Shown here: positions 7,611-49,936 of the stretch, in pieces
How positions within the stretch are numbered: position 1 is the stretch's first letter
Layout: every line of letters begins with the position of its first letter
Origin: an uncultured Clostridia bacterium
GTDB taxonomy: Bacteria > Bacillota > Clostridia > TANB77 > CAG-508
Reading direction: 5' to 3'
Assembly (NCBI GenBank): GCA_947590905.1
Contig: CANQCU010000004.1
Span: 16,591-80,590 of the forward strand
DNA: 64,000 nucleotides
Notes under the pieces: generated by a model
Told to the model about the DNA's origin: nothing
The model's database searches: none
What the model saw: the letters and a program-made list of their open reading frames with translations, nothing else
Program-made: the position numbers and the translations under genes

Positions 7611-9850
7611 ATGAAATTTGATGAATGGAATGGTTTTCAAAGTGGTAAATGGCAAAATGAAATTGATGTTAGAAATTTTATTCAAGCTAATTATACTCCA
7701 TATGAAGGAGATTCTTCTTTCTTAGCTGGACCTACTGAGAAAACTAAAAAGTTATGGAATGAAGTTTTAGATTTGTACTCAAAAGAAAAAAATTCTGAAG
7801 GAGGAGTTTTAGATATTGATACTAAAACAATCTCTACTATCTCTTCTCATAAAGCTGGATATATTGATAAAGAACTTGAACAAATTGTAGGTCTTCAAAC
7901 AGATGCACCTTTAAAAAGAGCTATTATGCCTTTTGGTGGTATAAGAATTGTTGAAAAATCTTGTGAAGCTTACGGTAAAAAGGTAGATCCTGAAACAGAA
8001 GCAATTTTCCACGGAGTTAGAAAAACGCATAACGACGGTGTTTTTGATGCATATACTCCGGATATCCGTGCTGCAAGAAGTTCACATTTAATTACAGGCC
8101 TTCCTGATGGTTATGGTCGTGGAAGAATTATTGGAGATTACAGACGTATTCCTCTTTATGGTGTAGATAGCTTGATTGAAGAAAGAAAACACGTTTTAGA
8201 TTTATTAGATAGAGATGAATTTACAGAAGAATTAGTTAGAGAAAGAGAAGAATTTGCAGAGCAAATTAGAGCTTTAGAAGCATTAAAAGTTATGGCTTCT
8301 AAGTATGATTTTGATATCTCTAAACCAGCAAGTAATGCTAGAGAAGCTGTTCAATGGTTATACTTTGGATATCTTGCAGCTATAAAAGATCAAAACGGTG
8401 CTGCAATGAGTCTTGGTAGAACTTCTACTTTCTTAGATATTTATTTTGAAAGAGATTTAAAAAATGGTGTTTTAACTGAGGAAGAAGTTCAAGAAATAGT
8501 TGATCACTTTATTATGAAATTAAGAATGGTTAGATTTTTAAGAACTCCTGAATATAACGAGTTATTTAGTGGAGACCCAGTTTGGGTAACTGAAAGTATT
8601 GGTGGTATGGGAATTGATGGTAGAACATTAGTTACAAAGAATTCATTTAGAGTTCTTCATACTCTTGAAAATTTAGGTCCTGCACCTGAGCCAAATTTAA
8701 CTGTCCTTTGGTCAACAAGATTACCTAGAGGATTTAAAGAATATACTACAAATCTTTCTATCAAAACTTCTTCTATACAATATGAGAATGACGATTTAAT
8801 GAGAAGGTTCTGGGGAGATGATTACGGAATTGCTTGCTGTGTATCTGCTATGCGTATTGGTAAACAAATGCAATTCTTTGGTGCTCGTGCAAATCTCGCT
8901 AAAACACTTCTTTATGCAATTAATGGTGGTAGAGATGAAAAGAGTGGAAAACAAATAACACCTAAGTTTGCACCTATTACTTCTGAATACTTAGATTATA
9001 ACGAAGTTATGGACAAGTTTGACAATATGATGAACTATGTCGCAAAAATTTATATTAAAGCTTTAAATGCTATTCACTTTATGCATGATAAATATTCTTA
9101 TGAAGCAATCGAAATGGCTCTTCATGATGAAGATATTTTAAGAACTATGGCTTGTGGTATAGCTGGTCTTTCTGTTGTTGCAGATTCACTTTCAGCTATT
9201 AAATATGCCAAAGTTAAGGTTATTCGTGACGAAACAGGTCTTGCTGTTGATTATAAAATTGAAGGTGATTTTCCAAAGTACGGTAATGATGATGATAGAG
9301 TTGACCAAATTGCTGTTGATATAATTAAATCTTTTATTGGTAAATTACAAAAACATCAAACTTACAAACATTCTAAACAGACTTTATCAATTCTTACTAT
9401 AACTTCTAATGTTGTTTATGGTAAGGCAACTGGAAGCACTCCTGATGGAAGGAAAGCTGGAGAACCTTTTGGTCCTGGTGCTAACCCTCTTCATGGAAGA
9501 GATACTAATGGTGCTCTTGCTGTTATGAATACTATTGCAAAGCTTCCTTATGAATATGCACAAGATGGTATTTCATATACTTTCTCAATAACACCTAAGG
9601 CTCTTGGTAAAGATGATTCTTCAAGAGTTAATAACTTAGTAAGTATGCTTGACCGGTTTCTTTGCACAAGACCGGACATCATATAAATGTAAATGTTTTT
9701 GATAGAAGTTTATTATTAGATGCTATGGAGCATCCTGAGAAATATCCTCAACTTACTATAAGAGTTTCTGGATATGCTGTAAATTTTGTTAAGTTAACTC
9801 GTGAGCAACAACTTGATGTTATTAATAGAACTATTCATGAGAAAATATAA
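7611..9850 (+). CDS. pflB: formate C-acetyltransferase (pyruvate formate-lyase); glycyl-radical domain displaced to another frame by two 1-nt insertions at about 9653 and 9672
   Basis: A 691-aa PFL body is followed by a 62-aa ORF carrying the glycyl-radical motif RVSGYAV. Removing the C in 'gac[c]ggtttc' and in 'gac[c]ggacat' gives the continuous …[17 protein letters not shown]…. Confidence 0.85.
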
Positions 9851-9866
9851 AAATATATCTTAATAA

Positions 9867-9992
9867 AGTGTATATATCTCTAATTTTTTTCGCACCTTGT
9901 TGTCGCAACCGAAAAAATTTTCAAAGTAGGTTGCTCCATTCGCGCTTCGCTTGATCGCTACGCGGTGCTATAAAAATTAGAGATAATACACT
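9867..9992. repeat. GC-rich palindromic intergenic element (24-bp AT-rich terminal inverted repeats around a nested GCACC…GGTGC / GCAACC…GGTTGC core); first copy of a two-copy family (second copy at 41090-41170)
   Basis: aaagtgtatatatctctaattttt … aaaaattagagataatacacttt flank a core that shares GTTGCTCCAT-TCGC-CTTCGCT…TGATCGCTACGC with 41108-41160. Confidence 0.6.
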
Positions 9993-10056
9993 TTTAGTTA
10001 ATACTTAAAATAATATATTGTTTTTCTATCTCATTAAATGAAAGGAATGTTTCTAT

Positions 10057-10884
10057 ATGGATGCAAATGATAGTTTAAGAGTTCATTCTTTTGAAAGTTT
10101 TGGTACTGTTGATGGTCCTGGTATAAGATATGTTATATTTCTTCAGGGATGTCATCTAAGATGCAAGTATTGCCAAAATAGGGATACTTGGGAAGAAAAT
10201 ACTGGAAATATTATTCCTATATCCGAAGTTGTTCAAACTATTTTGAAGTATCAAAGTTATATTAAGCCTTCTGGCGGAGGTGTTACTGTTTCTGGTGGAG
10301 AACCTTTGCTTCAAACTAGAGCTTTGATTTCTCTATTTAAGGAATTAAAAAAGTATGATATTAATACTGCAATAGATACTTCTGGTATGTTTAGTTTGAC
10401 TGATGAAGTAAAGGAATTAATTGATTTAACTGATTTGTTTTTACTTGATATTAAACATATTGTTCCTGCTAAGTCAAAGGAGCTTGTTGGCTTTTCGAAT
10501 GAGCTTGAAATTGAATTTGCAAAATATTTAAGTGATATAGGAAAACCTATGTGGATAAGGCAGGTCTTAGTTCCAGGATATACTGATTCCGAAGAAGATT
10601 TGCTTAAGTTAAAGGATTTTCTTTCTACTTTAAAGACTGTTCAAAAGGTAGAAATTTTACCTTATCATGATTTAGGTAAATTTAAATGGGAAAATTTAGG
10701 TCTTAAATATCCTTTATTTGATACAAGAACTGCTACTCAGGAAGATTTTGAAAGAGCTAAAAATATTTTACGGAATTTAATGTATAGATATAATCTTGAA
10801 ATTTTATGTATACTGTGTTATAATAGGTTTCAACCTATTGTAGGTTTTAAACCATTTTTCATTTATAGGAATTGGTTATTTTAA
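10057..10884 (+). CDS. pflA: pyruvate formate-lyase activating enzyme (radical SAM); the native last 3 codons are replaced by a 37-residue tail read from inserted DNA
   Basis: CxxxCxxC radical-SAM motif (CHLRCKYCQN) and the GGGVTVSGGEPLLQ motif. The native 3' end (…AKNILRNLGLD*) survives as a displaced copy at 11473-11601. Confidence 0.85.
   Translation: MDANDSLRVHSFESFGTVDGPGIRYVIFLQGCHLRCKYCQNRDTWEENTGNIIPISEVVQTILKYQSYIKPSGGGVTVSGGEPLLQTRALISLFKELKKYDINTAIDTSGMFSLTDEVKELIDLTDLFLLDIKHIVPAKSKELVGFSNELEIEFAKYLSDIGKPMWIRQVLVPGYTDSEEDLLKLKDFLSTLKTVQKVEILPYHDLGKFKWENLGLKYPLFDTRTATQEDFERAKNILRNLMYRYNLEILCILCYNRFQPIVGFKPFFIYRNWLF
10663..10779. repeat. 117-bp direct repeat, copy 1 (3' end of pflA); copy 2 at 11473-11589, about 91 % identical
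   Basis: Sequence alignment of tatcatgatttaggtaaat…aatattttacggaattta. The two copies bracket a 693-bp higher-GC insert. Confidence 0.8.
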
Positions 10885-10920
10885 GTCCCAAAGTTAGCAA
10901 AAAAAGATTGGAGGAAACTT

Positions 10921-11325
10921 TTGATGTTCAAGTATTACCTTAGAAGTTCATTTCCAACTTATGCGGGTCCGAGATCTAATAATATGTTTATTCGCTACAA
11001 GCGGATAGACCCAAATGACATTCCGCGCGATGTAACTTCCGGCGTTGCAAACCCCGAAATAGCTAGGGTTCTCTCTAATATTTTGGGCTTTGAGGTTCAC
11101 GCAGAACGGCTCGTAATAGCTCCTAGCAATGATAGCATTGTCTATGTAGCTAAATATACTGGGCCTAAAATTCCTAAGGGTGCAACTGCTGTTCCTTCTA
11201 GTGGTTATTTTGAATTCTTTGAAGTAACCACCAGAAAAGTCCATTGCTACAATTGTGGTGATTTTCCCACTCACTGCACTAACTGTAGTCATAGGCGGTG
11301 GTTTGCTGGGCAGAATCCTAACTAA
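10921..11325 (+). CDS. hypothetical Cys-rich protein (CxxC-x7-CxxC) encoded on a higher-GC foreign cassette
   Basis: A GGAGG ribosome-binding site precedes TTG/ATG, and an intrinsic terminator follows at 11355-11400. GC is about 45 % against about 27 % nearby. No family recognised. Confidence 0.3.
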   Translation: MMFKYYLRSSFPTYAGPRSNNMFIRYKRIDPNDIPRDVTSGVANPEIARVLSNILGFEVHAERLVIAPSNDSIVYVAKYTGPKIPKGATAVPSSGYFEFFEVTTRKVHCYNCGDFPTHCTNCSHRRWFAGQNPN

Positions 11326-11354
11326 TAGGCAAGAATCTTTACTAACTTTGGGCA

Positions 11355-11400
11355 AAATGAACCTACTTTGAGAAAATCAAAGTGGGTTCATTTTTTGTGT
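11355..11400 (+). terminator. intrinsic terminator (gaacctactttga-gaaaat-caaagtgggttc followed by TTTTTT)
   Basis: Hairpin with a T-tract immediately downstream of ORF 10921-11325. Confidence 0.5.
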
Positions 11401-11402
11401 AA

Positions 11403-11473
11403 TAGTAAATAATTAGATTTAATGCAAACATAGCAGTTATAATATAAATCCATTTTGATATTTTAATATCTTT
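11403..11473. repeat. 71-bp exact copy of an internal coding segment (21806-21876) of the GT-C membrane protein gene
   Basis: tagtaaataattagatttaatgcaaacatagcagttataatataaatccattttgatattttaatatcttt is identical at both loci. Confidence 0.85.
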
Positions 11474-11589
11474 ATCATGATTTAGGTAAATTCAATTGGA
11501 AAAATTTAGATCTTAAATATCCTTTATTTGATACAAGAACTGCAACTCAAGAGGGTTTTGAAAGGGCTAAAAATATTTTACGGAATTTA
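11473..11589. repeat. 117-bp direct repeat, copy 2 (displaced native pflA 3' end; the stop codon lies at 11599-11601)
   Basis: See the copy at 10663-10779. Confidence 0.8.
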
Positions 11590-11654
11590 GGATTAGATTA
11601 ATATGATTAGAATAATAAATTCTTATTATTCTTTGCTTATTTTAGATATAAAAC

Positions 11655-11686
11655 TGCCCCCTCTTGAATAAAGTCAAGAGGGGGTA
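11655..11686. terminator. strong GC-stem intrinsic terminator (ctgccccctcttga-ataaag-tcaagagggggtag)
   Basis: 13-bp perfect stem lying downstream of hisS (-) and of the pflA remnant (+). Confidence 0.7.
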
Positions 11687-11739
11687 GTTTGTTGAAGCCA
11701 CACAATTCGAGTAACTTCTAGATTCCCAGTAAAGTGCTA

Positions 11740-13059
11740 TCATAAATTGATAAATTTTCTTATACCTTCGTAATCAGTAAGGCAGAACTTGTACACATTT
11801 CCAGTATACATATTTTTCAATTGAATGGTATTACTCTGAAGCTCGTTTTCACCGATTACAATGACATATGGAATATTCATCTTATTAGCAAAATTCATGC
11901 TTTTTTTCAACTTCTGAACCCTTTTTTCCATCTCCGTTATCACTCCAACAGCTCTCATATTGGATACGAACTTAAACGTTTCAGCCTCTGTATTCATAGG
12001 AATTACATATAAGTCGACAGTAGCTACTTTTTTGTTGGATTCCTTTAAGATCAGAACTTCATAAATGACATCCAAACCAAATGACATTCCAACGGCAGGA
12101 TACTCATTTCCATCATCAACAAAACTTGTGATAATTTTATCGTATCTACCACCGCCACCGATACTCAAATTGAATTCCTGACTTCCAACTTTTCTGTCTT
12201 TGAGAAAAATTTCCCAGACAGTTCCTGTATAGATGTCAATACCTCTTGCTAAGTACGGTGCGAATCTCATACATGCGAGAGCCTCTGTTCCTTCGAGATA
12301 CCGATAAAGTTCATCTACTTCAGCCAGTCCTTCATTTACCAGTTCATTATCGTAGGATGCCATCTTTTCTCTAAGAGCCGTATAATCCAAACTTAAAATC
12401 TCTTTCAAAATTTTAACTTTAGACTTTTCAATTCCAATTGCCTCAAACTCTGTCAACAGCTCATCCTCTGTAAGTTTAGCAAACTTGTCAATCAACATAA
12501 TTGATTTCCTTAAAATATTTTCAGGAATTTCGCCAAAAACGCAGAAGATAATACCGCTTAAGAGTTTTCTGTTGTTGAACTCAATTTCAATGTCCAACCC
12601 AAGTTTCTTATAGACATCGTTTGTCATCATCATGTATTCAGCCTCAGCTAGAATACTTTTTACTCCAACAACATCAACATCACATTGCGTGAATTCCCTG
12701 TTTCTACCTACTTTAACTGGTCCATCTCTGAATACCTTGCCTATTTCATACCGTTTGAAAGGTAGGATAATATTAGGATTTGAGCTAATCAATTTTGAAA
12801 AAGTGATTGTCAAATCATATCTTAGTCCTAACTCTCTTCTCCCCTGATCGCTCAACTTGTAAGTTTCATTGAGAATATCAGCACCCTCTGAATATTTAGA
12901 TGCTAACAAGTCAAACTTACAGAGAATTGGCGTTTCCACAGGTGCAAAGCCGTATTTTATAAACTCGCTTTGCAAAACTGTTTTGATTCTTTCCCGAATA
13001 ATCTGTTTTTCGGGCAAGTAATCATATGTGCCTTTTAGGTTTTCAAAGTTTCTGCCCAT
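11740..13059 (-). CDS. hisS: histidine--tRNA ligase (class IIa) with C-terminal anticodon-binding domain
   Basis: HisRS motifs 1-3 (…GTYDYLPEKQ…, FKRYEIGKVFRDGPVKVGRNREFTQCD, GGGGRYD) plus the anticodon-binding domain. GC is about 38 %, higher than the flanks. Confidence 0.85.
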   Translation of the reverse strand: MGRNFENLKGTYDYLPEKQIIRERIKTVLQSEFIKYGFAPVETPILCKFDLLASKYSEGADILNETYKLSDQGRRELGLRYDLTITFSKLISSNPNIILPFKRYEIGKVFRDGPVKVGRNREFTQCDVDVVGVKSILAEAEYMMMTNDVYKKLGLDIEIEFNNRKLLSGIIFCVFGEIPENILRKSIMLIDKFAKLTEDELLTEFEAIGIEKSKVKILKEILSLDYTALREKMASYDNELVNEGLAEVDELYRYLEGTEALACMRFAPYLARGIDIYTGTVWEIFLKDRKVGSQEFNLSIGGGGRYDKIITSFVDDGNEYPAVGMSFGLDVIYEVLILKESNKKVATVDLYVIPMNTEAETFKFVSNMRAVGVITEMEKRVQKLKKSMNFANKMNIPYVIVIGENELQSNTIQLKNMYTGNVYKFCLTDYEGIRKFINL

Positions 13060-13134
13060 GATTATTACTCCTTTCTGAAAATCTTGAGAAATTTTATTAA
13101 AATTTCTCTATGTTATGAACAGCCTTACGCCCAT

Positions 13135-13163
13135 ATTATACAGCATTTCGAGGTTTCTGTCAA
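13135..13163 (-). promoter_or_regulatory. consensus sigma-A promoter of hisS (TTGACA, 17-nt spacer, TATAAT); no T-box leader present
   Basis: The reverse complement reads ttgacagaaacctcgaaatgctgtataat. Only about 100 nt of leader lie before the start codon, and there is no T-box (AATTAGGGTGGNACCGCG) motif. Confidence 0.55.
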
Positions 13164-13202
13164 TCTTATTTACATAATTTGTTGTCTAAAGATGTTGTAT
13201 TT

Positions 13203-14489
13203 TTACAAAACAATTGAATTTATATCATTTCTAAAATATAGATCATTCATATCTATGATATTAAAGTCATCTATAAGTTGTTTCTTTATATCTTCAAAAT
13301 TAGAACCGATTCTTCTTAATTCAAAAACTCTACCTCCAGATGGATATAATCTACCCTCTCGTTCTACTATATGTTCGCCTATAATTTCAGTATCTTGTGC
13401 TATTTTTTCTAAATTCATAATAGGTTCATTATAAATCTTTCTTTCTGTTTCTGGATATCCTGACGAAAAACCGCACATAGCAATAGATATTTTGTCTTTC
13501 ATCCAAAAATCCTGTATTTCATCAATATTGTTATAAAATGAATTAAACACTTCTATTAAAGGTATATCTAATAGGCCTAATAAAGCTATCCATTCTGGAT
13601 TTCCTGTTCTAGTATTATATTCCAAAACATATGGTTTGCCTTCTTCTGTAATCATTACTCCTATATATAATATATAATTATATTCAATTTGTTCATTTTC
13701 AAAGCCCTTTATTGTTGGTTCTATAATATCGTTCTTTAATCTTTTTAATAGTTTAGCAGGATATTTTTTAGATTCTGCAACCGATGCTGTACCAGCTGTC
13801 ATCGGTCCTTCATCATTAGGATATTTTCTTTTATAATCTTGTACCATTGGCATAATACTATATTTATTATTATTTATAAGTACATGTAGTGAAAGTTCAT
13901 GTCCTTTTATTTTTTCTTCTATTATAAGTTTAGCATTTGGCGTAGAATTAAATAATCTATAAATACTATTCTTTGCATCCTCTAAATCTTTCGGTACTGC
14001 TGTTCTTGCATATGAATTTTTTGAAAATTGCTCTACTTTTAATACATATCCATTTTTAGTCTTATTCCAATTTTTACTAATAAATCTAATTGCTTGTTCT
14101 TCATTTTGGGCAACATAATAATCAGGAGTAGGAATATTGTTTCTTTTCATAAATGCTTTTGAATATTCTTTGCTTGTTTCTAATCTTGCAACATCTTTTG
14201 AAATTCCAAAGACTTTATATCCTTTTGCTCTAAATAGTTCTGTTGCTCCTTTAGCAAGATCTGCTCTGTTACTTATAATTACTAAATCTGGTTTAAATGA
14301 GTTTGCGAATTTTATTGCTTCTTCAATATTTCTTACTCTATATACATTGTTATATTGTTTTTCCATTAAGGCATTTTCATTTTGTATTAATGAGCAAATT
14401 TCTATGTTAGGAGATTTCATTAGAGCTACATGATTTGCATGATCTCTTCCATTTCCTAATCCATATAATAATATTTTTTTATGTTTCAT
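13203..14489 (-). CDS. PurD-like ATP-grasp ligase (divergent phosphoribosylamine--glycine ligase homologue)
   Basis: Collinear with PurD: LLYGLGNGRDHANHVALMKSP against [21 protein letters not shown]; …FRAKGYKVFGISKDVARLETSKEYSKAFMKRNNIPTP; EYNTRTGNPE; SGGRVFEL. Key PurD substrate-loop residues diverge. It lies outside any pur operon. Confidence 0.6.
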   Translation of the reverse strand: MKHKKILLYGLGNGRDHANHVALMKSPNIEICSLIQNENALMEKQYNNVYRVRNIEEAIKFANSFKPDLVIISNRADLAKGATELFRAKGYKVFGISKDVARLETSKEYSKAFMKRNNIPTPDYYVAQNEEQAIRFISKNWNKTKNGYVLKVEQFSKNSYARTAVPKDLEDAKNSIYRLFNSTPNAKLIIEEKIKGHELSLHVLINNNKYSIMPMVQDYKRKYPNDEGPMTAGTASVAESKKYPAKLLKRLKNDIIEPTIKGFENEQIEYNYILYIGVMITEEGKPYVLEYNTRTGNPEWIALLGLLDIPLIEVFNSFYNNIDEIQDFWMKDKISIAMCGFSSGYPETERKIYNEPIMNLEKIAQDTEIIGEHIVEREGRLYPSGGRVFELRRIGSNFEDIKKQLIDDFNIIDMNDLYFRNDINSIVL

Positions 14490-14491
14490 TA

Positions 14492-15439
14492 TTAGTTCTC
14501 CTTTATAAAAGGTGGATATTCCTCATCTAACCATATAACTGGTGGTCCGTTTTTTAATTCTTCCTCATTTCTAATATATAAACCATCAAAATATCTTTTC
14601 TTTCCATCTGTTAAATCAATATGAAAAATTATTGGTAATGTTATTTCCTCTGGTTCAATAAAATCAGTAGGTTTTGCTATTTTTATGTATTCTACTTTAA
14701 AATATTTTAATGGCTCTTTTGTCAAACTTTTTTCAATCACTTCTTTGACTTTCTTTGCATTAGTCTCTCCAGATAATATTGCCTTTCTTCCTTCTTCACA
14801 TGCATCACTTAATCTTCTAAATTCTTTTATCTTCTTTTCTGGTAAATTCATTAATCTTGAGGATATTGCAATTCCACTTTTATACCTTACAGTTGGAACT
14901 TCTCTTACTATAATATCATCTTGAAACAAGTCCTTCAATGCTCGTTCAACCAAGATTACTTGTCCTATGTCTTTTAATCCCCAATAAGTCCTTGTTGGTC
15001 TTGTAAATAATATCCATCGAACACTCATTGTGATCATCCCCTTAAATAAATAAGGAACAGCAACTCCATTAAGTCTTTGATAGCATTCCCCTTGATCTAA
15101 ATATGTTCTAAAATCTTCTGGATATATTTCTTCTGTTTTAGGGCATATAATGTGAGTTGCTCCATGCTCTTCTGCAAATTTACAATCCTTATTAATATCA
15201 TATTCATAAGTTGAACCTGGAGCTAATTGAGCTACATTTGGATATATACTAATTACTGTACAATCATTTTCTTTTGCAGATAGTTCTATTAATTTGCCAT
15301 GTCCAATATGTAATGCACCCAAAGTATGTATAGAACCAATTGTTTTTCCTTGTTTGTGTAATTCTTTTAATCCTTCTTTAGCCTCTTCTAAAGAATTCCA
15401 TATAATTGCTGACATAATAATTTCACCTTTCTTCTTCAT
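14492..15439 (-). CDS. PanC-like ligase (pantoate--beta-alanine ligase family, divergent, with C-terminal extension)
   Basis: HIGH-type nucleotidyltransferase motif TLGALHIGHGKL, plus VISIYPNVAQL and IAISSR like PanC. The strongly conserved PanC segment GHFRGV…FGEKDxQQ is replaced. Confidence 0.55.
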   Translation of the reverse strand: MKKKGEIIMSAIIWNSLEEAKEGLKELHKQGKTIGSIHTLGALHIGHGKLIELSAKENDCTVISIYPNVAQLAPGSTYEYDINKDCKFAEEHGATHIICPKTEEIYPEDFRTYLDQGECYQRLNGVAVPYLFKGMITMSVRWILFTRPTRTYWGLKDIGQVILVERALKDLFQDDIIVREVPTVRYKSGIAISSRLMNLPEKKIKEFRRLSDACEEGRKAILSGETNAKKVKEVIEKSLTKEPLKYFKVEYIKIAKPTDFIEPEEITLPIIFHIDLTDGKKRYFDGLYIRNEEELKNGPPVIWLDEEYPPFIKEN

Positions 15440-16700
15440 CTTTTTCTGGATTTACATATATTCTTTTGTTCGGAGACCCTATTATTATGTTATCACTTGA
15501 ATTCAATGACTTAATTTTTATATCTTGTCCATTTTCTTCATTGCATCCTAATATTACTATATGTGTATAATCATCTTTTATCTTTTTTATTGCTTTTCCA
15601 ATATTTTTTATATTTCCTTTATATGCTACATTTTCTCCCATATTCTCTAACGCTTTTATAACTTTCAATACAAAATTTGGTGAGGCATCTATATTACATA
15701 TAGCAATTTTCCTTTTTATATCTTCTGTTAGTTTTAGTGGACTATTTCTTTCTATCGCTTCTACTCCTGATGCAACACTCCAAAAATTTTTTATTTTTTC
15801 ATTCCATCTTCTTGCATATCTTGTATATTCTCCTCCATCTCCTAAAGCAATTCCATCTAAAGTTCTAAATCGTAAAAGATATGTATCTATTGTTTCGATA
15901 CTATGTAAGTCTGTTGGATCAAAATATATATCAACACCTGTAATATAATTCAAACCTTCAGCCATTTTATATAATTTCATATATTCTTCTGGTAAATTCA
16001 GATTATTTTCTTTTTTATATTTAAGACTTATTATTCTTGGTTCTTGACTAAATAAATCTATTAATTCATTACATCTTCCTTCATCTTTTATTAATTGTTG
16101 AAATATTTGTATTCGTTCATCCCTTGAAGAAAATTGTAGTGTATGCAATAATTGTGCCAACTCATTTTCAGATACATATTTACTCAAAATATTTCTTAAA
16201 GCGCCATAATCATTAATATGTATTTTGGTTTTTATACCATTTGCGTCAAATAAATCTGTCATAGATTTTGCAAGCTGTATTAGATTAATATCTAAACTTT
16301 CATCCTCAGACGGTTTTTCATTAATAATTGAATACCCCAATTGTGTAAAATGTCTCGAATGACTATTTCTGTATCTAAATAATGGTGCTACAAATGCTAT
16401 CCTCTGTGATTCACCATTGCTATTTGTTACATAATTTCTAAATACAGATGGTGTTGAATCACATGATAGAATAAGTGCTTTTCCAGATTTGCTATTTAAA
16501 GTATAAACCTTATCTTTTGCTGTATTTGCCCCTCTAATAAATGTTGAACTATATCCAAGTGGAGAATATTTTTTTAATGTGCATCCTATTTTTTCTCCAC
16601 ATTTAGCATGAAAATCTAATATTCTTCTTTCTCTCTTTATCCATTCTTCTTCTCTGTCATACATTCCATGAGGTAATCGCAAATATTCTTCATAACTCAT
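15423..16700 (-). CDS. HisRS-catalytic-core-like protein (class II aaRS / HisZ-like paralog, no anticodon-binding domain)
   Basis: Motif-2-like FVAPLFRYRNSHSRHFTQLG and motif-3-like GDGGEYTRY. It lacks the HisRS C-terminal domain. Confidence 0.5.
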   Translation of the reverse strand: MSYEEYLRLPHGMYDREEEWIKRERRILDFHAKCGEKIGCTLKKYSPLGYSSTFIRGANTAKDKVYTLNSKSGKALILSCDSTPSVFRNYVTNSNGESQRIAFVAPLFRYRNSHSRHFTQLGYSIINEKPSEDESLDINLIQLAKSMTDLFDANGIKTKIHINDYGALRNILSKYVSENELAQLLHTLQFSSRDERIQIFQQLIKDEGRCNELIDLFSQEPRIISLKYKKENNLNLPEEYMKLYKMAEGLNYITGVDIYFDPTDLHSIETIDTYLLRFRTLDGIALGDGGEYTRYARRWNEKIKNFWSVASGVEAIERNSPLKLTEDIKRKIAICNIDASPNFVLKVIKALENMGENVAYKGNIKNIGKAIKKIKDDYTHIVILGCNEENGQDIKIKSLNSSDNIIIGSPNKRIYVNPEKDEEER

Positions 16701-16721
16701 TTATTTTCCTCTTTTCTCTAT

Positions 16722-17753
16722 TTAGGCATTTACCTCTATTGTTGATTTTTTTTCTTGTTCATTGCCATCAGATTTTCCATTTCTTTTTTGTATGTAAGAC
16801 ATTATAATTGCTACAATTATACATGCTCCTGCAACATATTTTCTCATATTTCCCATTGTCGTCCACAATCCCATAACACCCATAGGAATAACCCAATTCC
16901 ATACTGCAATAGCCAAAAGTGAAATAATTGTTCCCCACTTTTTATTAGCAATTTTTTGAATACTTACTATTGCAGCATCTGCTGTTGATAGAGCAACACA
17001 TAAAACAACAAAAATTAATATTGCATTCATTATTCCATTAAACTTAAACTTTGCAAGAACTCCTATGAAAGCCATATAAATAGCAAATAGCACTCCTGCT
17101 AAATAATGTGCTTTCATTTTTTTCTCTTTCTTTAACTTTTCTGCCATCTGCCAATTTTGTATACACATAATTGGTCCTGAAAATAGTATAAAGCATGAAT
17201 TTAAAGCCCAGAATATCTCACTTTGGTTCGTATAATTCACAATATCATATGTTTCTACATTTCCAACAAAACCACATATTATCAAAATAATAAGTAATAA
17301 ATAGCATAAAATCCATAGAGGATTATCTATAAAAATACTTTTTATTAGTCCATTCTTATATAATGCCACTGTCATAAAGAATATAATAGTAACTGATACA
17401 ATTTTAGATGCTATTTCTGTCATAAATGATAAATTGCATAAATATTGATATATAGCATTTAGTTGAATCCATAGACAAAATATACTAACTATAGTTGTAA
17501 AAATCATAACAATTTTGGAATTTACTACCCTTTCTAAATTCGGTATTCTATAGGCTATAAAACCAAATAATGGTATTGCTAATGAATTTGCTAATGCCCA
17601 GATTACAAATGGTATTATTCCTTTGGTTTGCATTGTTTCCATTCCTACTACTAAAGACGTTCCCCAAGCCCAACTAGCAGCTAGAGACATTGCATAAAAT
17701 AAAGTTGAATTTTTCTTTAACATGTTTTTCATAATTTCTATCATTCCTTCCAT
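16722..17753 (-). CDS. polytopic membrane transporter (about 10 TM), family unassigned
   Basis: Hydrophobicity pattern of the 343-aa translation. Confidence 0.4.
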   Translation of the reverse strand: MEGMIEIMKNMLKKNSTLFYAMSLAASWAWGTSLVVGMETMQTKGIIPFVIWALANSLAIPLFGFIAYRIPNLERVVNSKIVMIFTTIVSIFCLWIQLNAIYQYLCNLSFMTEIASKIVSVTIIFFMTVALYKNGLIKSIFIDNPLWILCYLLLIILIICGFVGNVETYDIVNYTNQSEIFWALNSCFILFSGPIMCIQNWQMAEKLKKEKKMKAHYLAGVLFAIYMAFIGVLAKFKFNGIMNAILIFVVLCVALSTADAAIVSIQKIANKKWGTIISLLAIAVWNWVIPMGVMGLWTTMGNMRKYVAGACIIVAIIMSYIQKRNGKSDGNEQEKKSTIEVNA

Positions 17754-18760: not shown

Positions 18761-18905
18761 TTTTCAACAATTCCTTTCGTTTAATATAAAAACATTTATA
18801 TTATATCACCACTTCTTCTTTTATGTCAACTTTTTAGTCGAATATGTTGTGATTTTGCCTCATTTTTATAAATTCACATTAGCCTCATTTTTTATAAATT
18901 TACTA

Positions 18906-18957
18906 TTGTATGTATTATATATTTGTGATATAATGTGTCAAATGCTAGACAGCATTT
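18906..18957 (+). promoter_or_regulatory. promoter (TTGTAT, 17-nt spacer, TATAAT) with an operator-like perfect palindrome AAATGCT-agac-AGCATTT abutting the -10, upstream of the GNAT gene
   Basis: Hexamers at 18906-18911 and 18929-18934. The 7-4-7 inverted repeat sits at 18940-18957. Confidence 0.4.
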
Positions 18958-18982
18958 AATCTTTATGAAAGGACAGATTACA

Positions 18983-19507
18983 ATGAAAAACCAGCAAAAC
19001 ATTCGGCCGTCTGTGAGTTTTGAAGATTTTGCGAAAATTTTCAAAGTTTTTGAATCTTTTCCATTCTTTGAATCTTGGACAGACAAAGAAATTTTGGAAG
19101 AGTATAACTCTTTCCAAAATGGTGGAATTATCTTTGGATATTTCACCGATGAGGGTAAGTGTGTAGGAATCCTGACCATGAAGCCTTATGAGCCTGGCAA
19201 ACACCCTGTAGAATATCCTAGCGATGCTAAGGTTATGTACCTCTCTGATGTCGCTACTCTTTTTGAGTATCGGAATATGGGCATTGCAACTAGTTTGTTC
19301 GAATATGCTATTCGACATTTCCAGGTCCTGGGATATGATTATATCTATCTTAGGACCAATGAAAAAAACTCTATGTCCTATGACATAGCTAAAAAGTGTG
19401 GCTTTGTCCGTCTTTACGATATTATTCAGGAAGTGGAGAGAAAAAGAGCTAATGGTACAATTACGAAGGACGCTAGAATCTTCATGGAGAAGAAATTATC
19501 AAAATAA
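18983..19507 (+). CDS. GNAT-family N-acetyltransferase, higher-GC gene
   Basis: Acetyl-CoA binding motif YRNMGIATSLF. GC is about 40 %. The start is chosen at MKNQQNIRP, which has an upstream ribosome-binding site. Confidence 0.6.
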   Translation: MKNQQNIRPSVSFEDFAKIFKVFESFPFFESWTDKEILEEYNSFQNGGIIFGYFTDEGKCVGILTMKPYEPGKHPVEYPSDAKVMYLSDVATLFEYRNMGIATSLFEYAIRHFQVLGYDYIYLRTNEKNSMSYDIAKKCGFVRLYDIIQEVERKRANGTITKDARIFMEKKLSK

Positions 19508-19550
19508 TCTGCTCAGTTTCATTACTGCGCTTAAGCAGTATATGGACATC

Positions 19551-19583
19551 TTAAAAGGTCATTTTAGAGAATTCTAAAATGAC
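19551..19583. terminator. bidirectional intrinsic terminator (aggtcattttagag-aattctaaaatgacct)
   Basis: Inverted repeat between the convergent GNAT and pepD genes. Confidence 0.55.
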
Positions 19584-21242: not shown

Positions 21243-22943
21243 TTATTGTTTTGGAATAATATGTACCTTCTCTTGTGTCTCATCACTTACATACACATCT
21301 ATTGTTTCCAATCCAATATCTACTTTTTTTGCTCCTTCTATTTTTCCTCCAAAATCTTTTCTTACAATGATTGCTGTGTTTGCTTGTTCTAACTCCAATT
21401 CCTCTTCTTCATAATATTTTTTATAATCACAACTCAATATTCCAAAGAAATAATAATCTTCTAGGGCATAAGCATATACTTTGCTATAATCTCTTTTTAA
21501 GAAATTTGCAAGTTTAATATAATCTGGCATTTTCTTTGTTCCTTGTGCCACTGAGTTAGATAAATATAATGGTTGTGCTAAATTAAATGGCATTATAATT
21601 ATTAGACTTGTAATTAGTATTACTATAAAAGATCCTAATTTTTTTACTACTTTTCCTTCTCTTTTTAAATCTAACCACACTAAAATAATCCCAAACATTA
21701 AAACTATTAGCTTTGTTCCAGCTCCATTTAGTTTCATATTTAATGTTAGTATTGTAAGATATAGATAAGCATCTATTCCGGTTATTTTAGGAGTTGCTTT
21801 TATATAGTAAATAATTAGATTTAATGCAAACATAGCAGTTATAATATAAATCCATTTTGATATTTTAATATCTTTTTCTTCTAATTTTAAAAACATTAGT
21901 ATATATGGAATTGCAAATATTGATAGGTATCTTACACATATTTTGCCTGGAAACATATTGCCTGTTTCCTCTGGGATATAAACTATTGCAGACACTTCAA
22001 TTACTGTAAAAATCATACTTAAAGTTACAAACTTTAAAAATTCTCTATCTTCTTTTTCATACTCTTTGTAATTAAATAAAGGTATTAAAACTGGCAAGAC
22101 CCCAAATGCAGAAATTGAGAATACTAGATATTCAACTATACCATATAGAAAATATCCTATTTTACTGATATTTAATGGAAATATACTCATTATTTGTCTA
22201 TCATAATGATTTACTCCATTTTGAAAATTATTAATTATGTATATTATAAAATATCCTAAAAATATCAAGCTTATAAATGCTATCCCTTGATAAAATATTT
22301 TTTGAATTTCTTTTGAGTTCTTGTCCTTCAAATTTTTAACAAATACACATATGAAATACGCAAATGCAATTACTATTGTATATGATTTTGTGAAAAACAA
22401 TATTGCAAATGCTATTATTATTAATATGTCTCGTTTTATATTCTCTTTTTTTGTGAATTTATTATAAACAAGATATGCTATCCATAGAAAAATTGGATAA
22501 CTAAAATTTTCTTGAATTAGATATGCTCCTGATACCATATCTGGAATTATAAGCATTAATGCTGATATTCCAAGAGCTTTTATTTTGCTTTTAAGTATGT
22601 CCTTTGATAACAGATAAACTGGAATTATGCTTGAGGCCATTGCTATTACGCCAATCATTCTCATTATAAATAAGATATTCTCTGGATTATAGAAAAAATA
22701 TGCTAGCGATAAAATTACTGAATATATTATACAACTGTAATTTAGCACTTGGTATTCTCTTGAAAAATTTCCATTATAAAAAAAAGATCTTGCCATGTTA
22801 ACATATAGGTCTTCATCATTACTTTCATAAATTGGAACTGTCATTCTTCTTGCAATATTTCCATATATCAATATACATAATATGAATAACAGTATAAGGC
22901 ATAGTTTTGTATGTCTTTCTAAGAAATTCTTAATTTGTTTCAT
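21243..22943 (-). CDS. polytopic membrane protein, GT-C-type glycosyltransferase-like (ArnT/PMT-like), putative
   Basis: About 14 TM segments, an N-terminal loop with acidic and aromatic residues, and a C-terminal soluble domain. The assignment is tentative. Confidence 0.4.
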   Translation of the reverse strand: MKQIKNFLERHTKLCLILLFILCILIYGNIARRMTVPIYESNDEDLYVNMARSFFYNGNFSREYQVLNYSCIIYSVILSLAYFFYNPENILFIMRMIGVIAMASSIIPVYLLSKDILKSKIKALGISALMLIIPDMVSGAYLIQENFSYPIFLWIAYLVYNKFTKKENIKRDILIIIAFAILFFTKSYTIVIAFAYFICVFVKNLKDKNSKEIQKIFYQGIAFISLIFLGYFIIYIINNFQNGVNHYDRQIMSIFPLNISKIGYFLYGIVEYLVFSISAFGVLPVLIPLFNYKEYEKEDREFLKFVTLSMIFTVIEVSAIVYIPEETGNMFPGKICVRYLSIFAIPYILMFLKLEEKDIKISKWIYIITAMFALNLIIYYIKATPKITGIDAYLYLTILTLNMKLNGAGTKLIVLMFGIILVWLDLKREGKVVKKLGSFIVILITSLIIIMPFNLAQPLYLSNSVAQGTKKMPDYIKLANFLKRDYSKVYAYALEDYYFFGILSCDYKKYYEEEELELEQANTAIIVRKDFGGKIEGAKKVDIGLETIDVYVSDETQEKVHIIPKQ

Positions 22944-49453: not shown

Positions 49454-49490
49454 AGAAGGCCAGCCGGAAATTATTCCGCTGGCCTTCTTA
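49454..49490. terminator. GC-rich hairpin (aagaaggccagc-cggaaattattccg-ctggccttctt)
   Basis: 12-bp perfect stem at the edge of a 450-bp higher-GC patch. Confidence 0.5.
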
Positions 49491-49936
49491 ATTTTGCCTC
49501 ATTCTTCCTCTTCTTTGTCTTCAAAAGTCGAATAAATAACCTCGAAAACTGAGGCCAAGGCTGTCAGCAAAGCTGCTGAAACAGAAAGAATTTTTATTAT
49601 CCGCTCGATTGTTTTATGCATAAACGTTTTCCTCTCCAATGTTTTTTAATTAGGTGATTCTTCGTTCTTGGGTGCGAACAAAATTACAAGCATTAATGCG
49701 AGTATTTCTGCCAGACTTTGGATTGCTCTTGCGACCTTAGTTGGAAATACAATTACCAAGATTACAAGTGACATGGAAATTGCCTCGCATACCATGCCTA
49801 ATTTTTTATTCACGCGGATAACCTCCTTTCAATATTCTTCATTGAATAATTATATCATATTTTACATAATATTACAAGAAAATTAGAAATTGTGTAAAAT
49901 AAAAACCCTTTTTATAAGGGCTTTTATCTATTCTTA

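Follow-up and report, generated by a model that had tools for sequence, protein, structure and literature searches.

The 64,000-nt stretch of contig CANQCU010000004.1 that was analyzed here (the window), from an uncultured Clostridia bacterium, carries a short, compositionally foreign cassette at the 3'-end of pflA. The product of this cassette is a homologue of the DUF1874 (AcrIII-1/Crn2 ring-nuclease) family with an added four-cysteine motif at the C-terminus. We favor, with a probability of roughly 0.6, a compact accessory cassette of the moron type, which occupies a variable spot and was joined by homologous recombination on one side and by illegitimate recombination on the other.

The features of the locus are presented in Table 1. 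A direct repeat of 118 nt, the two copies of which (DR1 and DR2) are 92% identical with nine mismatches, brackets 692 nt of DNA. The final 72 nt inside the repeat interval (the filler) were found to be an exact match, in the same orientation, to the interior of the gene for a PMT_2-like membrane glycosyltransferase 10.4 kb away, and shuffled sequences gave no such match. The filler and the start of DR2 overlap by a microhomology of 2–4 nt (CTTT/TT). The GC content is 0.40–0.46 across positions 10900–11300, relative to ~0.26–0.32 on either side; the window as a whole has 0.29. The only open reading frames (ORFs) within 10780–11471 are the DUF1874 gene and its antisense shadow. The displaced 3'-end of pflA that contains DR2 is 8% diverged both from DR1 and from the allele of the sister strains, which are strains of the window's own species represented by contigs L002 and L003.

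Most of this layout had been recognized in a preliminary description of the DNA, which correctly placed the surviving pflA 3'-end downstream of the insert. All of the features that it named were found, none of them being expected by chance. The bracketing repeats, the copy of a distant gene fragment, and the replacement of the last three pflA codons were also recovered, with revised dimensions: the repeats are 118 nt and 92% identical rather than 117 bp and 91%, the copied fragment is 72 nt from 21804–21875 rather than 71 from 21806–21876, and the tail of PflA has 34 residues rather than 37 (275 versus 244 aa). The segment of raised GC content does contain the ribosome-binding site (RBS), ORF, and terminator assigned to it, together with a promoter; the spacing between its CxxC pairs is x6 and not x7, and the coding sequence (CDS) is 133 aa in length.

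Table 1. Features of the pflA locus and of the filler source, in window coordinates.
Feature	Position	Strand	Remarks
pflA (pyruvate formate-lyase activating enzyme)	10057..10884	+	Radical_SAM and Fer4_12 matches; conserved part to 10779 (..RNL)
DR1, left repeat copy	10662..10779	+	part of live pflA; identical to the L002/L003 allele
Promoter, TTGAAA-N17-TATAAT with TG extension	10796..10824	+	near-consensus; promoter scan
Panhandle arm, 5'-untranslated region	10885..10901	+	directly upstream of the RBS
DUF1874-like CDS, 133 aa	10924..11325	+	fold, then C-terminal CxxC-x6-CxxC; His47 replaced by Asn; ORF opens at 10921/10924
Panhandle arm, 3'-untranslated region	11338..11353	+	directly before the terminator
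Intrinsic terminator	11354..11399	+	18-bp stem, 5-nt loop, T-run
Filler, 72 nt	11402..11473	+	exact copy of 21804–21875
Displaced pflA 3'-end remnant	11472..11601	+	DR2 at 11472–11589, then native codons GLD and stop at 11590–11601
Native bidirectional terminator, originally after pflA	11651..11690	.	homologous to the post-pflA terminator of L002
Strain-variable five-gene block	11740..17753	-	HisRS-like, GARS/PurD-like ATP-grasp, PanC-like, second HisRS-like, membrane protein; absent from L002/L003
Filler source	21804..21875	+	interior of the PMT_2-like membrane glycosyltransferase gene (21243–22943, minus strand)

The promoter of the cassette starts just 16 nt past the end of the pflA homology, and its spacer holds a motif, TTTTATGT, that is common to the homologous cassettes of other genomes. 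The RBS (GGAGG, 10910–10914) is located 9 nt ahead of the ATG at 10924. A 15-nt inverted repeat (10887–10901/11338–11352) pairs the 5'-untranslated region (UTR) with the 3'-UTR and is present in both the minimum free energy and the centroid folds; the folding z-scores are strongly negative (−6 to −11), mostly from this panhandle helix and the terminator hairpin. In the homologous cassettes of L091 and L012, a helix is found at the same topological position with other arm sequences (TGGAATT/AATTCCA versus CCCAAAG/CTTTGGG), at 265–284/704–723 in L091 and with the 5' arm at about 2894–2921 in L012. The covariation of the arms across these three sequences is suggestive but is not proof of a conserved helix. 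We infer that the cassette is transcribed from a strong sigma-70-type promoter and that the UTRs of its mRNA pair with one another, closing off the coding region before the terminator. The panhandle, with arms at 10885–10897 and 11342–11353 in the window, may act as an mRNA-stabilizing or RNase III element.

The family of the cassette protein was established from its distant homologues. A word-indexed search of 5.8 billion proteins returned the cassette protein itself as the sole match, and a full HMMER scan of 1.84 billion representatives identified 259 homologues at E ≤ 1e-3, the best of which is 40% identical (E = 1.5e-22). PF08960 (STIV_B116-like, DUF1874) is matched by 27 of the 36 aligned homologues. 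The profile of the alignment matches PDB entries 2x4i (SIRV1 ORF114/gp29; 6e-14) and 6scf (AcrIII-1 in complex with cyclic tetra-adenylate, cA4; 1.6e-12), and also 2j6b and 2j85 (AFV3-109, STIV B116). AlphaFold (AF2) with the homologue alignment gave a model with a predicted local distance difference test score (pLDDT) of 87 and a predicted template modeling score (pTM) of 0.81; the single-sequence prediction was uninformative (pLDDT 42). When this model was compared with the PDB using Foldseek, the ten best matches were led by 6scf, 2x4i, 2j85, and 2j6b (probability 1.0), followed by Csx1-Crn2 (8y7f). A C-terminal extension of the form CxxC...CxxC...W..G is found in roughly half of the closest bacterial homologues. 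More than 3000 proteins of the collection belong to the DUF1874 family. Viral contigs often encode it, and a scan of them with a 9-sequence alignment found 177 relatives. PADLOC returned no match for the cassette protein, and elsewhere in the window it returned generic ATPase and protease domains only. An apparently orphan ORF is thereby placed within the AcrIII-1/Crn2 family.

The nature of the segment had been suggested otherwise by its GC-rich composition and by the equally long ORFs on its two strands, which raised the possibility of a structured RNA. This candidate was ruled out by the empty Rfam result, by the protein homology, and by the dN/dS ratio; the latter two identify the segment as coding rather than noncoding. 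In the Rfam scans nothing relevant was found at E ≤ 1 over 9700–11800 nor at the gathering score over the window, and blastn of the insert against phages and plasmids gave zero matches.

The active site of AcrIII-1 has been characterized previously. His47 was described as absolutely conserved, its replacement by alanine lowered the activity by more than 2500-fold, and cA4 is contacted by R85, R66, N8, Q81, S11, T50, S49, and N13 (10.1101/778746). These positions were mapped onto the cassette protein through a 260-sequence alignment that includes SIRV1 gp29. The cassette protein was found to carry N8S, S11P, G46A, H47N, T50I, N65E, Q81K, R85K, and E88K, with R66 alone being kept. Among the eight cA4 contacts (N8, S11, N13, S49, T50, R66, Q81, and R85), the seven that are replaced have become S, P, T, E, I, K, and K, in order. 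Histidine occupies position 47 in 236 of the ~260 aligned family members, and the canonical residues are retained in about 90% of the relatives. The family members that lack the histidine are few, and those examined are stand-alone chromosomal genes.

The dN/dS ratio between the two orthologous His-less cassettes of L012 and L091 was determined to be 0.17, and the sole single-nucleotide polymorphism (SNP) within the insert between the window and L001, an independent assembly that is 2 SNPs from the window, is synonymous. Judged by its sequence, the cassette ORF is a real, constrained coding gene. Given the substitutions described above, the dimeric fold is probably retained without cleavage of cA4; binding of some other ligand, or of a partner protein, is more likely. 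An activity that is independent of cA4 has a precedent, since SIRV2 gp37, also a DUF1874 protein, has been reported to act via a protein partner by inhibiting a lysine methyltransferase (10.1101/2023.01.10.523387).

The opposite possibility is a functional AcrIII-1/Crn2 ring nuclease that silences type III CRISPR signaling by cA4, whether left over from an anti-CRISPR or serving the host as a regulator. This would be in keeping with the family and fold of the protein and with the strong promoter. We consider it quite improbable, as His47 and eight of the nine further ligand-contact or conserved positions examined are substituted. The Rfam scan of the 64-kb window contained no CRISPR direct-repeat family, and no Cas or CARF match was given by PADLOC among the 26 ORFs tested. 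Phage and CRISPR genes are both missing from the neighborhood of the cassette, whose neighbors are pflA and a gene for a histidyl-tRNA synthetase (HisRS)-like protein.

The position of the cassette was compared among relatives of the host, which belongs to a lineage of uncultured small-genome gut Clostridia. In a GTDB scan without the window's own species, the closest representatives were metagenome-assembled genomes from rabbit gut with PflA proteins that are 87–88% identical. Nine related species have pflB-pflA facing glmU with intervening DNA that varies: most have a terminator alone there, and L090 has a glycosyltransferase gene. In L012 and L091 (the latter a Logan contig), the order between the convergent genes is pflA, terminator, promoter, RBS, DUF1874 gene, terminator, and glmU. 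These two cassettes have the promoter of the window (TTGAC-TTTTATGT-...-TATAAT), the 5'-UTR motif TTATTTTAAGT, and the RBS ATTGGAGGAAA, and their DUF1874 proteins are ~40% identical to that of the window and are likewise His-less, with a decayed remnant of the Cys motif in L012. The promoter and UTR motifs also precede DUF1874 genes in other contexts (L092, L175, and L178). In L002 and L003, an intact pflA is followed directly by the gene for an S66 peptidase, and the cassette, the five-gene block, and a GNAT acetyltransferase gene of the window are not present. In the window, the remnant of pflA is separated from the S66 peptidase gene by the five-gene block.

The cassette has therefore occupied a variable spot repeatedly or for a long time, and it is not a unique foreign insertion. 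The preliminary description was right that the insert is compositionally foreign, but homologous cassettes at the same position in L012 and L091 show that it is not a one-off event. The same comparison bears on whether relatives share this architecture: a homologous cassette is indeed present in L012 and L091, though with proteins of only ~40% identity, and the sister strains are without any cassette. The pflA-glmU interval is a hot spot that holds differing single-gene cassettes from species to species.

Other cassettes and homologues were observed in these genomes. In L017 (3686–4165), the place between pflA and glmU is taken by an unrelated cassette, in which a 115-aa ORF that matches nothing in Pfam or PADLOC is accompanied by a promoter, an RBS, and a terminator. 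In the window, a small cassette on the minus strand follows rplQ (49455–49880); its two hydrophobic ORFs are short (55 and 46 aa), its GC content is higher, and it has an RBS and a GC-rich terminator. The promoter, TTGTAATATTATGTAAAATATGATATAAT, is nearly identical to that of the L017 cassette. The close homologues of the cassette protein that are most widespread occur on dozens of contigs, with L004 (5995–6065, 7360–7430, and 8001–8411) as an example; they are 136 aa in length and canonical, with the histidine in place. Their chromosomal context is fixed, directly after a tRNA gene that is duplicated and with a PMT_2 glycosyltransferase gene downstream, and the CDS of the L004 homologue is 52% GC inside a locus of 31% GC. 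The recurrence of PMT_2, as the neighbor of some homologues and as the source of the filler in the window, was taken as a coincidence because the orientations differ.

It is tempting to draw these cassettes into an undescribed class of recombinase-free, promoter-to-terminator micro-cassettes (motif TTGNNN-TTTTATGT-N9-TATAAT, raised GC content, and an mRNA panhandle) that would spread between small-genome gut Clostridia, with convergent terminators such as that of pflA/glmU as their landing sites. Their His-less DUF1874 protein with its Zn motif would then be a neofunctionalized paralogue without cA4 cleavage, for example a nucleotide-signal sponge or an inhibitor of a host enzyme. This generalization is speculative, and we think it rather doubtful as a whole.

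The insertion has altered the end of PflA itself. The protein is 275 aa in length, compared with 244 aa for the form of the sister strains (which ends in ..RNLELD*), and the two are identical through residue 241. Positions 10780–10881 encode 34 read-through residues that replace three, with the stop codon at 10882–10884, and the same tail recurs in product P0004 of a third contig. Among related species, the C-termini of PflA beyond ..ILRN(L/I) vary freely, with tails of 1–17 aa, and the junction falls exactly where the constraint on PflA ends. The 34-residue tail is plausibly tolerated because the extreme C-terminus is unconstrained.

The allelic state of the two flanks is informative about how the arrangement arose. 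From 9686 to 10779, a stretch that takes in the whole of DR1 and 206 intergenic nt, there are zero mismatches to L002 and L003. Relative to the same strains, nine of the 118 nt of DR2 are mismatched, as are nine of the 109 nt that follow, the terminator included, and the genes further to the right are ~98% identical. Five of the nine changes in DR2 are synonymous. The repeat copies thus come from different alleles and not from decay in situ, since DR1 is flawless relative to the sister strains though five of the nine changes are synonymous. The later decay that had been suggested for the scar finds no counterpart in DR1 and the 845 nt around it, which are without differences from the sister strains.

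We propose that DNA consisting of a pflA of the sister-strain type, the cassette, and the 72-nt piece of the glycosyltransferase gene was joined to a more diverged resident pflA. The join would have been made at the 2–4 nt of microhomology, 130 nt short of the end of the resident gene, and it would have duplicated 118 nt, displaced the resident 3'-end with its terminator, and given PflA the 34-residue tail. Such a process would be homology-facilitated illegitimate recombination (HFIR), in which one side is homologous and the other is illegitimate (PMC3240628), or a close equivalent, and it would need no site-specific recombinase. The filler requires at least one earlier or simultaneous illegitimate join. 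Either side of the join may have been the anchor, and the cassette and the filler may have been joined earlier in the donor or in the same event. Illegitimate recombination had been one of two options offered in the preliminary description, and it is the one that is borne out by a filler from 10.4 kb away, by the microhomology, and by the absence of a recombinase.

Several points weigh against this account of the locus and its protein. The junction between the filler and DR2 (11473/11474) was seen in the window assembly only. The required order in the donor (pflA, cassette, glycosyltransferase interior) was observed nowhere and no donor contig was found, and the account presupposes a route of DNA uptake into the host, such as competence, conjugation, or transduction. 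Four of the nine changes in DR2 are nonsynonymous at positions that are conserved in relatives, which also fits some decay of the remnant. The cassette protein of the window has ~40% identity to its counterparts at the same locus and likewise to the canonical His-bearing homologue of L092 located elsewhere, and vertical descent and repeated acquisition at the spot fit this equally well. Taken alone, the cassette protein gave only sub-threshold zinc-finger noise with Pfam and PHROGs and reached no Pfam threshold, and the loss of ring-nuclease activity is argued from residue identities only. A scan of the JGI metagenomes with a DR2-specific 38-mer, for an intact pflA of the DR2 allele, returned nothing.

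The strongest alternative is a rearrangement in place. In a genome that already carried the cassette, a break or a template switch, of the kind known as microhomology-mediated break-induced replication (MMBIR) or fork stalling and template switching (FoSTeS), would have copied the 72 nt and re-primed 118 nt upstream within pflA, and a later homologous exchange with a sister strain would have overwritten the left flank as far as the homology reaches. Such a switch would be expected to leave a filler templated from nearby with its orientation kept, as well as the microhomology and the short duplication, and related species already have a homologous cassette at this spot. Even so, we judge it unlikely: the exchange is an extra event whose right crossover must fall within the last 24 nt of DR1 to convert all nine sites. 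It also leaves unexplained why the cassette starts 16 nt upstream of the −35 box without the pflA terminator, unlike the cassettes of L012 and L091.

A scar of site-specific integration at the 3'-end of pflA, in which the 118-nt repeats are attL and attR of an element that later decayed, was the other origin put forward in the preliminary description. Direct repeats do flank foreign DNA at the end of a gene, and a different DUF1874 homologue adjoins the duplicated tRNA gene of L004 in another organism. We hold this origin to be very improbable and do not retain it. No integrase is encoded within or beside the insert, and the flanking genes are metabolic. The end of pflA was not regenerated, since three codons were lost and 34 unrelated residues were gained; the filler separates the cassette terminator from the right repeat. 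The repeat is 118 nt in length and not a short att core, and its copies are different alleles. The cassettes of L012 and L091 follow an intact pflA and its terminator without any repeat. An integron cassette, which would be a promoterless ORF with attC at its 3' side and intI/attI beside it, was likewise ruled out. The present cassette has a near-consensus promoter of its own and no attC site, its 3' hairpin with the T-run being a terminator, and no integrase is nearby.

The junctions were compared with other assemblies. L001 reproduces those between DR1 and the insert and between the insert and the filler, and ends 55 nt into the filler; L173 and L174, two further Logan contigs, are 100% identical to 11514–16059 and stop inside DR2 at a 33-nt stretch common to DR1. 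Contig ends at the 55-mer and at the 33-nt identical stretch are expected, because these are true repeats. The presence of both haplotypes in one study (L003 versus L173/L174), the breaks of the other assemblies at the repeats, and the junction unique to the window might be ascribed to a chimera made by assembly or binning of co-occurring strains, but this is hardly credible given that L001, assembled independently and 2 SNPs away, reproduces two of the three junctions, that the remaining junction shares 2–4 nt, far under the overlap of any assembler, and that a true repeat yields just such contig breaks. The earlier opinion that an assembly artifact is unlikely is upheld on these grounds.

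Several neighboring features were also noted. The gene downstream of the pflA remnant, which had been called hisS, does encode a HisRS-like protein, but it opens a 6-kb, five-gene block that the sister strains lack. The first HisRS-like protein has an anticodon domain, the PanC-like protein is a ligase, and the second HisRS-like protein is HisRS/HisZ-like; the block looks like a cluster for small-molecule biosynthesis or resistance rather than a housekeeping hisS locus. At 18837–19553 is a second strain-specific insertion relative to L002 and L003, which consists of the GNAT acetyltransferase gene with higher GC content, TTA on both sides, a promoter-like TGTGATATAAT upstream (found by eye), and a stem-loop downstream.

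Upstream of pflA, pflB (7611–9686; ORF 9662–9850) is split by two single-C insertions 21 nt apart (9650–9680), each of which creates GACCGG. They are common to the window, L001, and L002 and are absent in five related species. Dropping one C per site exactly restores the conserved LDGFFAQDGHHIN of pflB, and a 62-aa glycyl-radical piece is thus out of frame. The split pflB could be a pseudogene, a split pyruvate formate-lyase, or a case of double +1 frameshifting at the rare CGG codon. Between pflB and pflA, an inverted repeat of ~24 nt (9866–9889/9973–9996) surrounds a GC-richer core of ~83 nt and is identical in L002 and L003; it has no Rfam match and could be a structured element or one resembling a miniature inverted-repeat transposable element.

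The rearrangement itself is an ordinary scar of illegitimate recombination, and nothing here overturns current understanding. It provides a natural case, in uncultured gut Clostridia, of an accessory gene that entered the end of a core gene through homologous recombination on one side and illegitimate recombination on the other. Modestly new are a branch of AcrIII-1 that has the Cys motif, lacks the active site, and is under purifying selection, and the recurrence of promoter-bearing micro-cassettes. As this bacterial sub-branch of AcrIII-1/Crn2 has lost the ring-nuclease active site and is still under purifying selection, the fold probably has a second use.

Among known systems, the products of HFIR are similar in that one flank is continuous with a homologous allele and the other is joined at a microhomology of a few nucleotides, with gain of foreign DNA and local duplication of resident sequence; the present case differs in being known from sequence with the donor unseen and in having the 72-nt filler. 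Integrative elements that enter the 3'-end of a gene and carry a replacement end share the direct repeats around foreign DNA, whereas the present locus has no recombinase and an unrestored gene end, its long repeat combines two alleles, and its right boundary has the filler on the inner side. Phage morons are likewise self-contained transcription units of deviant GC content placed between unrelated genes and present or absent among close relatives, but this cassette is located on a bacterial chromosome between housekeeping genes and not in a prophage, in a spot where the cassettes differ from one species to another. With AcrIII-1/Crn2 (SIRV1 gp29; 6SCF and 2X4I), the cassette protein shares homologous sequence, the predicted fold, small size, a stand-alone gene with a strong promoter, and a family abundant on viral contigs. 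It differs from them in H47N and in the replacement of N8, S11, T50, Q81, R85, and E88, in its chromosomal location without phage or CRISPR neighbors, and in the extra CxxC-x6-CxxC, which is common in the bacterial homologues and absent from the solved proteins of archaeal viruses.

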